Shown here piece after piece: positions 29,233 through 36,996 of a stretch of DNA of 64,000 bases. The position numbers were made by a program, and so were the translations under genes. The notes beneath the pieces were generated by a model. The model saw nothing but the letters and a program-made list of their open reading frames with translations, was not told the DNA's origin and made no database searches. Within the stretch, counting starts at the first letter, position 1. Each line of letters opens with the position of its first letter. Location of the stretch: IMG/VR virus record IMGVR_UViG_3300010350_000237, positions 1,052 to 65,051 of that record. One strand, given 5' to 3'. Source of the DNA: a virus.

Positions 29233-29814
29233 ATGGCAAAGGTAAAGAAAGGTAAAGTCGCCGATCTTATCCAGGACGATAAGAACGCGAACCAGGGAAC
29301 GATCGTCGGCGACCGAATGATCGGCGAAAGTATTAAAACGCTGGGCCTGGGACGTTCTGTCCTGGTCGATAAGGATAACCGTCTTATCGCTGGGAATAAG
29401 ACCCAAAAAAAGACCCTGGAAGAAGGAATTCAAAACGCGATTATCGTCGAAACCGATGGTAAAGAACTGATCGTCGTTAAACGAACCGACCTTTCCCTGG
29501 ACGACGAAAAAGCCCGGGCGCTGGCGCTGGCTGATAACCGAACGGCCGAAACGAACCTTAACTGGGATAACCAGAACGTCCAGATTCACTTCGACGCAGC
29601 TGTTAACATGGGACTGGGCGACCTGGTATTCGATACCGACGTTACTATCGGGGGCGACGCTGCCGGCGGGGGCTCTGGCGCTCCGAAAGACCTGTCGAAT
29701 TCCCTGGACGAAGTATTTAAAATCGAAATCGAATTCGCCGACGAAATGGCTTTAAAGGAAGCGTTCGAACAACTTACCGAACTGGGCTATCAATGCAAAA
29801 TATTAACATTGTAA
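29233..29814 (+). CDS. ParB/Srx-like domain protein
   Basis: DDKNAN..T...SI..LG.GRSVLVDK...IAGN; ALADNRTAE. Confidence 0.8.
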   Translation: MAKVKKGKVADLIQDDKNANQGTIVGDRMIGESIKTLGLGRSVLVDKDNRLIAGNKTQKKTLEEGIQNAIIVETDGKELIVVKRTDLSLDDEKARALALADNRTAETNLNWDNQNVQIHFDAAVNMGLGDLVFDTDVTIGGDAAGGGSGAPKDLSNSLDEVFKIEIEFADEMALKEAFEQLTELGYQCKILTL

Positions 29815-30482
29815 GGAAGATCGAAGTCGAAGATACCTTTCGGAATTCGTCGATCGTCGGAATGTTTGATTTACAGCCCGACAGTTACGTCGAAGAATTC
29901 CAGGGACAGTTCGACCCGCCTCCAGACTGGCAGATCGGCGCGATCGTCGGTAATTCTGGAACCGGTAAAACGACGATCGCGAAAGAACTTTTCCCCGATT
30001 CGTATATTACGAAATTCAAGTACGACCGGAATAAATCGGTCGTCGATTGTATGCCGGAGGGCGTAACCGTAAAGGAAATCGCCCAGGTATTTAATTCCGT
30101 CGGTTTTTCTTCGCCCCCTTCCTGGCTCAAACCTTACGAAGTCCTATCGAACGGCCAGAAAATGCGTACCGATTTAGCCCGCGCCCTTCTTCTTAATAAA
30201 GACCTGATCGTCTTCGACGAATTTACCAGCGTCGTCGACCGTAACGTCGCACAGATCGGAAGTCTGGCTGTCCAGAAAGCGATCAGGAAGACGAAACGTC
30301 GTTTTATCGCGGTAACCTGTCATTTCGACGTTTTACCCTGGTTAATGCCCGACTGGGTATTCGACGCGAACGACTTTACAATGTCCGTTTTTACGGAAAA
30401 AAAAAGCCCGAAATTAACGTCGAAATATTCCAGACAAACGATCGCAGCGTCTGGAAAATCTTTGCTAAACATCACTATTTAA
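29793..30482 (+). CDS. Stand-alone ABC ATPase (0-frame product)
   Basis: GNSGTGKT, LSNGQ, IVFDEFTS, VTCH; no TM partner. Confidence 0.9.
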   Translation: MQNINIVRKIEVEDTFRNSSIVGMFDLQPDSYVEEFQGQFDPPPDWQIGAIVGNSGTGKTTIAKELFPDSYITKFKYDRNKSVVDCMPEGVTVKEIAQVFNSVGFSSPPSWLKPYEVLSNGQKMRTDLARALLLNKDLIVFDEFTSVVDRNVAQIGSLAVQKAIRKTKRRFIAVTCHFDVLPWLMPDWVFDANDFTMSVFTEKKSPKLTSKYSRQTIAASGKSLLNITI

Positions 30483-30880
30483 ACCATAATTTCCACCGAT
30501 CGGCGGACGTCTTTCTTATGTATTGTAACGGGGAACTTTGCGGTCTTTCGTCCGCGATTAACTTCGTTCACCCGATCGTTAAAAATACCAGGAAAGAACA
30601 CCGAACAGTCGTTCTTCCTGATTACCAGGGCGTCGGACTGGGCGTTCTTTTAAGGAACTTCGTCGCCGAACATTATCGAAAGAAGGGTCTTTCGTTTATT
30701 ACGGTTACGTCGAACCCAGCGTTAATTCATTACATGAAAAGGTCGCCTTTGTGGATATGTACCTTTTACGGTCGACAGTCGGCGCAAAGGGGCCAATTAA
30801 AATGGCTGAACAATACAGCGGCGACGAAGCGGTTAACGACGTCCTGGAAATATGTCGGCACGAAATTTTCGGTAAAATAA
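30404..30880 (+). CDS. GNAT acetyltransferase domain, reached by a -1 shift at A9 (30397-30405)
   Basis: -1 frame is open from 30404: KPEINVEIFQTNDRSVWKIFAKHHYL...HRTVVLPDYQGVGLG. Confidence 0.85.
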   Translation, partial: KPEINVEIFQTNDRSVWKIFAKHHYLNHNFHRSADVFLMYCNGELCGLSSAINFVHPIVKNTRKEHRTVVLPDYQGVGLGVLLRNFVAEHYRKKGLSFITVTSNPALIHYMKRSPLWICTFYGRQSAQRGQLKWLNNTAATKRLTTSWKYVGTKFSVK

Positions 30881-30911
30881 ACCCGAACGCAGTGTAAACG
30901 CAGTGTAAAAC

Positions 30912-31956: not shown

Positions 31957-32430
31957 ATGGCCTGCACCCTTTCGCCCCTGTTATCTGTCGACGCTTGTTC
32001 CTGTTACGAATACGAACAGGCGAAGAAGTCCTTACCAGCGATAACGATAAAACAACCTTTCGCCAGTCTGGTCGGCTGGGGCGTAAAGACGATCGAAGTT
32101 CGATCTTCAAATCTTAACTATCGGGGGCCGTTAATTATCTGTTCGGGGAAAAAGGTCTTCGACGGCGTTTCCCTTCTTATGCCGAACAGTCTGGAGTATT
32201 ACCGACAGTACAAAAGTATTATGCCCCAGGGACAGGCGATCGCCGTCGTCGAACTGGTCGACTGCCGACCAATGAAGCCGAAAGACGCCGATCTTTCTTT
32301 CGTCCCTTACTCCGAAGGTCTTTATTCCTGGATATTACGCGACGCGACGTCGATCGAACCTTTCGAAGTTTCTGGTAATATTGGAATCTTCCATTTAAAA
32401 CAGAACCGAATCGTCTTTCGACATTTTTAA
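31957..32430 (+). CDS. ASCH domain protein
   Basis: AITIKQPFASLV..GVKTIEVRS....YRGPLII. Confidence 0.9.
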   Translation: MACTLSPLLSVDACSCYEYEQAKKSLPAITIKQPFASLVGWGVKTIEVRSSNLNYRGPLIICSGKKVFDGVSLLMPNSLEYYRQYKSIMPQGQAIAVVELVDCRPMKPKDADLSFVPYSEGLYSWILRDATSIEPFEVSGNIGIFHLKQNRIVFRHF

Positions 32431-36048: not shown

Positions 36049-36996
36049 ATGTATCAGGGCACTTTAAAGAAGCCGGACGGGTCGGTTCTGGCGAAATTCG
36101 ATATTCCTTCGAACTTGTCAGAACTGCCCCTTAACCGGTTTATCGACTTCCTGGTCGAATGTCGGAAGATGGACGAAGACGCGGATAACGTCGCCGAATA
36201 TGTAACGAAAGCGGTCGCCGAATTTACTGGGTACCCGTTCGAACAGATGGTCGTCGCCCAGTACGAAACGTTTTCGGAACCTGGCCTTATCGATTCGATC
36301 GCGAAGATTTTCGCACACGCTTTAAAACTGTTATCGAAGGCGAAGGGTACCTTACTTACTCCAGAACAGGCGGTCTTTAATTACAAAGGCGAAAAGTTCA
36401 GGATTCCGGTAATACTCCAGTCGGCGGTAAAAGGGGAAACGATTCTTCCAGGACTTTCGGCGATCGAAGTTATCGAAGTCGCGGAGGTTCACAGATTCAA
36501 AAAACAGGTTACCGAAAACCAGGCAGACCCAGACGGAAGACTTCGTCGAAGGATTAACAAAGTTATCGAAGAACAGGCGGCCGGTACCGGTATGCTGGGC
36601 GACCTTTCTTCGCACTTCGATAAGATCAAAACGCTGGAACTTGAAAAGGCCGGCGACCCGAACGGTTCCCTTATTTATTCGACGTATCTTAAAACGCTGG
36701 CAATACTGGCCCGAAAGGACGGCGAAAACCTTCCTTTTAAAGATTCGGAACGGGAAGCCTGGATTCAGAACCGGGCGTCTTTCTTTTCCGAAATCGACGC
36801 CGCGACAGCGTTAAACGTAGATTTTTTTTTGAGCAGTATTTTGCGGAACTCCGAAAACGTAATGCCTGTCGCTGGTTTTTTGAGCCTCCAAAGTTTCGCA
36901 GCCGTGGCGGCGACCCAGTTAAAGAAAGGGAAGCGTTCGAAAGGTCGATCGCGCACACGGAAGAAACGTTTAAAAAGGTCGGCTGGCGGCAAATGA
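36049..36996 (+). CDS. Putative tail assembly chaperone, 0-frame product
   Basis: Followed by a frameshift-accessible extension. Confidence 0.55.
   Translation: MYQGTLKKPDGSVLAKFDIPSNLSELPLNRFIDFLVECRKMDEDADNVAEYVTKAVAEFTGYPFEQMVVAQYETFSEPGLIDSIAKIFAHALKLLSKAKGTLLTPEQAVFNYKGEKFRIPVILQSAVKGETILPGLSAIEVIEVAEVHRFKKQVTENQADPDGRLRRRINKVIEEQAAGTGMLGDLSSHFDKIKTLELEKAGDPNGSLIYSTYLKTLAILARKDGENLPFKDSEREAWIQNRASFFSEIDAATALNVDFFLSSILRNSENVMPVAGFLSLQSFAAVAATQLKKGKRSKGRSRTRKKRLKRSAGGK

Follow-up and report, generated by a model that had tools for sequence, protein, structure and literature searches.

A probable programmed slippage site at the domain joint of a widespread phage ATPase/acetyltransferase gene

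Does a run of nine adenines that interrupts a phage gene mark a faulty base call, a ruined gene, or a site at which expression changes its reading frame by design? The question is raised by a phage from activated sludge, of which the window (the whole 64-kb stretch of DNA analysed here, positions 1,052 to 65,051 of the 65,174-bp IMG/VR record IMGVR_UViG_3300010350_000237, CheckV completeness 96%) carries a gene for an ABC-type ATPase that runs through an A9 tract, with a GNAT acetyltransferase domain following in the −1 frame. An earlier inspection of the letters alone, hereafter the sequence-only reading, had proposed that the locus gives two products, the ATPase alone and an ATPase-GNAT fusion, through ribosomal or transcriptional slippage. 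That proposal is supported here by independent assemblies, by clade-wise conservation of the break and by purifying selection on a GNAT frame that lacks a start codon; the A9 tract is very probably a genuine programmed −1 recoding site, located at the linker of an ATPase/GNAT gene of the phrog_11143 family and giving rise to two products.

The 0-frame open reading frame (ORF) contains Walker A (GNSGTGKT), signature (LSNGQ) and Walker B (DEF) motifs, matches Pfam ABC_tran (PF00005, E 2e-9) and ends, beyond the run, in a 25-residue out-of-frame tail, SPKLTSKYSRQTIAASGKSLLNITI. Direct reading bears out the codons at the run and the LLNITI terminus that the sequence-only reading had given for this frame. 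The −1 frame, which reads KPEINVEIFQTNDRSVWKIFAKHHYLNHNF...LPDYQGVGLG and matches Pfam Acetyltransf_1 (PF00583, E 3e-7), is open and encodes the GNAT domain as had been claimed; its opening, however, lies further upstream than the claimed 30404, and the frame is open from 30245 to 30880. Its only ATG, GTG or TTG before 30530 is the ATG at 30518, with none between 30245 and 30518, and the claimed lack of an upstream ATG therefore stands and extends to the alternative start codons.

The two parts match the 357 positions of phrog_11143 colinearly, the 0-frame part at 2-204 (E 1.8e-60) and the −1 part at 200-353 (E 3.4e-28), which places the break exactly at the domain joint, a coincidence far above chance. 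The ATPase and GNAT parts are colinear in one polypeptide only if a −1 shift occurs within the run. The conceptual fusion then has 204 + 158 = 362 aa, in agreement with the length of about 362 aa that had been estimated, and the in-frame homologues P0047, P0050 and P0054 are equally long. Whether the frame is changed by a −1 shift or by one extra A in the mRNA, the junction reads ...TEKKKPEINVE.... Standard decoding would thus yield the 229-aa ATPase with its short out-of-frame tail, and a fraction of expression events, shifting to the −1 frame within the run, would yield the 362-aa ATPase-GNAT protein.

Table 1. Features of the ATPase/GNAT locus and its neighbourhood (window coordinates).
Feature	Position	Strand	Remarks
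ParB-like N-terminal-domain gene	29233-29814	+	phrog_620, E 2.5e-15; end overlaps ATPase start by 22 nt
0-frame ORF, short product of 229 aa	29793-30482	+	ABC-type ATPase; TAA at 30480-30482 after LLNITI
Least variable nucleotide stretch	30388-30492	+	A run and two-frame overlap; comparison of the window, L162 and L163
A9 run, probable slip site	30397-30405	+	G on either side; 0-frame codons GAA AAA AAA AGC (context ACG GAA AAA AAA AGC CCG)
GNAT acetyltransferase domain, −1 frame	30404-30880	+	158 codons and TAA (30878-30880); C-terminal half of the long product
Predicted 8-bp hairpin, UUCCAGAC(13 nt)GUCUGGAA	30428-30456	+	starts 22 nt past the run; z −1.27
ASCH-domain gene	31957-32430	+	PF04266, E 6e-6

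The same break is widespread among relatives. A protein search with the 229-aa ORF returned thousands of them, and the 120 nearest clusters at 90% identity were classified: 85 have the split form, with lengths of 206-234 aa (nearly all 226-234) and KK or KKK at the break, and the remaining 35 are fusions of 340-365 aa. Further, 160 loci were fetched from IMG/VR and metagenomes, both domains were placed by tblastn, and about 155 loci were typed for frame state. The GNAT domain lies in the −1 frame at an A8 run (3 loci), an A9 run (19 loci) or an A10 run (11 loci); in frame at an A10 run (113 loci, C-A10-T, reading QKKNRP), at an A11 run (2 loci) or with no run (4 loci); and in the +1 frame at an A11 run (2 loci, probably one phage found twice). 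Accordingly, a −1 shift at an A8-A10 run is needed in 33 of the approximately 155 typed loci, which represent at least 14 distinct flanking contexts, and the recurrence in homologues that the sequence-only reading had proposed to look for is found both in these loci and in the 85 clusters. In most shifted loci a −1-frame stop codon lies directly 5′ of the run, and the shift must therefore occur within the run itself. Separately, the otherwise A10, in-frame marine clade includes two A11 variants (L042 and L136) in which a TAG follows the run immediately in the 0 frame.

A tree of the ATPase domain groups the window with L082, L083 and L007 in a clade (SH-aLRT 94) whose members are all shifted and are separated by path lengths of 0.7-0.9 substitutions per site. 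Across the tree, the state changes between in-frame and shifted about 10 times, at least three of these changes being forced by strong branches, and one shallow clade is mixed, with eight unique sequences carrying A9 and two (L058 and L155) carrying A10. Relatives with 82-88% identity were not returned by the IMG/VR and metagenome scans; two of them, L162 and L163, were obtained by exact protein look-up. L162 (84% aa identity) has the context ACG-A10-G through a G>A substitution and retains the same break. In L163 (88% aa identity, 62.6-kb contig), whose protein is carried by four contigs in the exact-protein look-up, the G after the A9 is lost and CCC comes next, so that GNAT now lies in the +1 frame (L163:2590-2625); the 0 frame stops after TEKKTRN, giving an ATPase ORF of 207 aa, and the GNAT domain is intact.

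Beyond these relatives, 89 deposited phage genomes carry a member of the ATPase/GNAT family. In-frame fusions occur in Arthrobacter, Rhodococcus, Pasteurella, Porphyromonas, Leptospira, Pseudomonas, Nonlabens and Pseudoalteromonas phages. In five Firmicute phages (Streptococcus prophage 315.4, Javan141, MismyG, Lactococcus phage P335 and Oenococcus phage unk162), an ATPase of 225-226 aa is followed by GNAT in the −1 frame; the same joint is broken without a homopolymer, and the −1 frame opens shortly before the joint and has no start codon. In particular, the Streptococcus and Lactococcus phages retain CAG GTT TTT CxA TxY CCC CAC at the joint, and Oenococcus phage unk162 has ACA AAG GGC (A_AAG_GGC) following TTT TCT TTT. 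Deposited Firmicute records (L164, L165, L166, L199 and L200) label the ATPase half an 'ABC (iron siderophore/oligopeptide) transporter'. Their GNAT remainder is annotated either as a truncated 88-aa protein or with its start at a TTG within the conserved HYL motif, and the −1 break goes unannotated. Among genome assemblies, a Gilliamella isolate prophage (A9) and an Alistipes metagenome-assembled genome (MAG; A10) are shifted, and a Clostridia MAG has CGT TTT TTC (T_TTT_TTC) at the joint. Moreover, Bathyarchaeota MAG contigs (L182-L194, up to 2 Mb) hold several gene copies per genome, nearly all with an A7-A9 run (ATA AAA AAA AAG or CGA AAA AAA GAA) and a −1 break, L186 being in +1. Since the −1 break recurs at this joint with different slippery sequences, the making of a short and a long product appears to be a property of the family, achieved by differing means. 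As an annotation detail, the Pseudoalteromonas phage SL25 (L201:801-1900) carries an in-frame ATPase/GNAT gene where its record annotates no coding sequence.

Selection on the two halves is alike. Over the window, L162 and L163, at synonymous distances (dS) of 0.5-0.95, the ratio of nonsynonymous to synonymous substitution rates (dN/dS) is 0.14-0.19 for GNAT and 0.12-0.16 for the ATPase; because this ratio is low and near the ATPase value, the GNAT frame appears to be translated. Further, the first 38 GNAT codons, ahead of the ATG (PEINVEIFQT.DRSVWK.FAKHHYLNHNFH...), are conserved and align with the GNAT start of the in-frame fusions. Independent initiation of GNAT from an internal site was rejected, as was pseudogenisation, because the domain is under selection, a start codon is absent and these first codons, which have no in-frame start, are conserved. 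The break is thus real and conserved, and both halves that flank it are under selection.

At the nucleotide level, variability was scanned over the 2.1-kb ParB-like/ATPase/GNAT/DUF5681 module in the window and its 84% and 88% relatives. The stretch around the run and the overlap of the two frames (Table 1) has 3 variable columns per 60, as compared with a mean of 20, and the next lowest value, 8, is found at the Walker A motif. A cis-acting signal could account for this conservation, as could a recombination patch or a coding role in both frames, one of them for the 25-residue tail. A synonymous-rate profile, which is a hint only as amino-acid composition is uncontrolled, likewise finds the first 26 GNAT codons to be less variable in both classes.

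Several other explanations of the break were weighed. Homopolymers are the classic place for indel errors, and in-frame A10 homologues exist, so the A9 might stand for a true A10 that was miscalled in sequencing or assembly. The sequence-only reading had named an A10 in the reads, combined with in-frame homologues, as the signs of such an error; some homologues are indeed in frame with A10, but the contigs here have A9. Logan contigs from four runs of four studies, two of the runs possibly being the source sample, were aligned to 29700-30900 and show zero indels across that region. In particular, contig X3, from a separate study (2018), is identical to the window over 29700-30486, and contig X4 (wastewater, 2020, depth 81), from a 92%-identical relative, differs by 98 substitutions and 0 gaps. 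The tract length is the same in all four assemblies, and length heterogeneity was not seen, though contigs hide minority variants. The window is also free of a general homopolymer-error signature: it has three homopolymers of at least 9 nt (an intergenic T9, the A9 at 30397 and a T9 at 36822), and A8, T8 and G7 runs within its long ORFs (44655, 33509 and 45950) leave the frames unbroken. As A9 miscalls number 0 of 113 loci in the large in-frame A10 clade and the break is kept in 85 clusters, a miscall is extremely improbable. Scarcely more probable is a recent split that killed the GNAT half and left the ATPase functional alone. Such a pseudogene would account for a GNAT frame without a start codon under standard decoding and for the annotation of GNAT fragments alone in related phages. 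Against it, all shifted relatives examined have an uninterrupted 158-codon GNAT frame, its dN/dS is on par with that of the ATPase, the codons ahead of the ATG are conserved, and the shifted state is ancestral to the clade spanning 0.7-0.9 substitutions per site; the selection data effectively refute this explanation. Phase variation at the DNA level, in which replication slippage in the phage population turns GNAT off at A9 and on at A10 and the fusion comes from A10 genomes only, draws on the approximately 10 state changes on the tree, including the shallow clade with both alleles, on the A11 variants and on the fact that poly-A tracts are known sites of phase variation (PMC3711429). It is nonetheless improbable: consensus assemblies show entire clades, as well as 85 of the 120 nearest clusters, to be uniformly 'off', yet purifying selection on GNAT persists at dS up to 0.95; a single tract length is found in the four assemblies of the phage and its relative; and the Firmicute members are broken without any variable repeat.

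If the A9 run is a programmed recoding site, as preferred here, the −1 frame could be reached by two routes that give the same protein: an additional A inserted by RNA polymerase as it transcribes the 9-nt homopolymer, or a −1 slip of the ribosome on A_AAA_AAA. We infer the slippage route, its efficiency and the roles of the two isoforms; one possible role is the formation of mixed ABC dimers bearing zero, one or two GNAT domains. Runs of nine A or T make bacterial RNA polymerase slip efficiently and insert one or more residues (PMC5009743). The locus shares features of known sites of this type: the homopolymer at the junction is unbroken and reaches the minimum of about 8-9 nt (A9, with A8-A10 in relatives), run and break persist in diverged homologues, and both parts of the gene evolve under purifying selection. 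The ribosomal route has its own sequence basis, since A_AAA_AAA is a recognised −1 heptamer (PMC3711429) and occurs here at 30398-30404 in the 0-frame register of the X_XXY_YYZ pattern. Further, some relatives have sites that only a ribosome could use (A7 in CGA AAA AAA GAA, T_TTT_TTC, A_AAG_GGC, and GGTTTTTC/CCCCC in Firmicute phages), and the required shift is nearly always −1 (33 loci versus 2-4). The strong form of this alternative, a sub-hypothesis of programmed recoding and not exclusive of it, holds that tandem tRNA-Lys slippage makes essentially all of the long product and that polymerase slippage is negligible; granted that the recoding is real, its chances are somewhat below even. 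No convincing stimulator was seen at the usual spacing of 5-9 nt, the only stable hairpin lying further downstream (Table 1), and a Shine-Dalgarno-like element 6-17 nt upstream is absent as well. We lean slightly toward transcriptional slippage as the main contributor at this A9 because nearly all poly-A members maintain runs of 8-11 nt although 7 nt would suffice for a ribosome, because lineages have repeatedly switched between an out-of-frame A9 and an in-frame A10, and because the close relative L163 needs a different shift. In particular, the frame of L163 would be restored by the loss of one A or the gain of two, a correction available from transcripts of graded length but not from a −1 ribosomal shift, yet its GNAT domain is intact; moreover, A9/A10 flips within shallow clades are easier to tolerate with slippage of approximately 50%, as reported for polymerase on 9-nt runs (PMC5009743).

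Several observations weigh against programmed slippage at the A9 run, or against the polymerase as its agent. A look-up of sequencing runs containing the stretch listed none of RNA, and only assembled contigs were compared, in which minority A10 genomes or A10 transcripts would not show. Single-sequence folds and alifold over eight relatives gave no significant or covarying stimulatory structure, the consensus near the predicted hairpin reaching only −3.7 kcal/mol in a stretch where the sequence is unusually conserved, and no Shine-Dalgarno-like element (GGAG, GAGG, AGGA, GGGG or AAGG) was found in 30361-30397. The low variability around the run may stem from dual coding or from a recent recombination patch instead of a signal. 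Codon bias alone predicts an unbroken run in approximately 63% of independent draws for the AT-rich in-frame clade, which makes the conservation of A10 there weaker evidence than it appears; the corresponding expectation for the window phage is about 0.35 per draw, and neither value is decisive by itself. Finally, family members with A7, with T_TTT_TTC or with no homopolymer argue for ribosomal frameshifting as the general mechanism.

The kind of recoding proposed is already known, and literature searches found no published description of it in this widespread phage ATPase/GNAT family; the GeneTack paper interprets the ABC clusters that it reports as cases of translational coupling. The closest parallel is dnaX tau/gamma of Thermus thermophilus and the two-ORF dnaX of Chlorobi, where a run of 9-10 A at the boundary of a P-loop ATPase domain likewise gives a short and a long product, and in the Chlorobi gene (A10, two ORFs) the long product needs a slip, as it would in the phage gene (PMC5009743, PMC3711429). 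Unlike the phage gene, dnaX encodes a different, cellular protein family, the long form of Thermus (A9) is the unshifted one, and slippage has been shown experimentally in Thermus, whereas in the phage gene we infer it. E. coli dnaX and insertion sequence (IS) elements (A_AAA_AAG / A_AAA_AAA) share with the phage gene an in-register heptamer of lysine codons and the −1 direction, and in IS elements the −1 frameshift fuses two ORFs, as proposed here (PMC3711429, PMC4066793); those sites, however, have Shine-Dalgarno-like elements and hairpin or pseudoknot stimulators at defined spacing, of which none was found at the phage A9. In Shigella flexneri mxiE/spa13, overlapping ORFs are similarly fused by polymerase slippage on a 9-nt homopolymer, extending a set fraction of the product (PMC5009743). 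The mxiE/spa13 genes are virulence-plasmid regulators, without evidence of the cross-phylum conservation seen for the ATPase/GNAT family. The phage tail assembly chaperones gpG and gpGT are made in a fixed ratio, gpGT being a version of the short gpG that a conserved −1 frameshift extends at its C terminus. As in gpG/gpGT, the recoding position is conserved in the ATPase/GNAT family while the slippery sequence varies between lineages; gpG/gpGT is a structural-assembly pair made by ribosomal frameshifting of low efficiency, whereas the phage ATPase/GNAT gene would encode an enzyme fusion. The nearest named family, phrog_11143 (JGI 'ABC-type ATPase with predicted acetyltransferase domain', in-frame, approximately 357-365 aa), is matched over its whole profile and has the same ParB-like neighbour; its in-frame fusions do not need the −1 shift that the window copy requires, as do 85 of the 120 nearest clusters.

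The neighbouring genes offer some guide to function. The ATPase/GNAT gene is preceded by the ParB-like gene and followed by a DUF5681 gene and, further on, by the ASCH-domain gene (Table 1), and both kinds of neighbour, ParB-like and ASCH, are also found in Firmicute phages and L162 (ASCH in L162, L164 and L200). A transporter membrane subunit is absent from the gene context, and the 'ABC transporter' labels of deposited records are unsupported by it; NCBIfam gave only generic ABC matches below their cut-offs and nothing for the GNAT part, and a sequence search of the PDB gave generic ABC ATPases only. ASCH proteins include the N4-acetylcytidine amidohydrolase YqfB (PMC6972931) and have been reported as erasers of tRNA ac4C (bioRxiv 10.64898/2026.02.27.708502). 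Since an enzyme with ATPase and GNAT domains adjoins an ASCH protein, analogy suggests N4-acylcytosine chemistry for the module. In Porphyromonas phage 009a (L170) and Pseudomonas phage Komp_PAO1_1 (L172), the next gene after the in-frame fusion carries the annotation phosphoribosylglycinamide formyltransferase, another acyl- or formyl-transfer neighbour. Elsewhere in the window, its other coding 9-nt homopolymer, a T9 at 36822-36830, lies inside the ORF 36049-36993, where the −1 frame stays open to 37115, and may be a frameshift site of the tail-chaperone type.

A more far-reaching proposal, rather doubtful as a whole, would join these elements. The tract would act as a polymerase-slippage switch operating near 50%, with an isoform ratio almost independent of A9 or A10, which would explain why the alleles flip freely while the run is kept; the conserved stretch of approximately 80 nt 3′ of the run would tune the switch, either as a new kind of cis element or through a functional tail in the second frame; and the mixture of short and long products would assemble into asymmetric ABC dimers with a single GNAT domain, which might write N4-acylcytosine at the expense of ATP and act as a pair with the ASCH-domain protein encoded nearby.

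To our knowledge, few recoding sites outside the tail-chaperone genes are conserved across many phage groups. The ATPase/GNAT break recurs at one joint in phages from sludge communities of the Bacteroidota type, in marine and freshwater phages, in Gilliamella and Alistipes prophages, in P335 and 315.4, and in elements in Bathyarchaeota MAGs. Current annotation splits the gene, mislabels its first half as a transporter and gives GNAT spurious starts, with the result that thousands of records lack the true product. The natural pairs of A9 and A10 alleles are, moreover, a ready system in which slippage by the polymerase and by the ribosome can be compared. Overall, the logic of short and long isoforms offers a hint of how the ParB-linked ATPase-acetyltransferase, as yet uncharacterised, may work.

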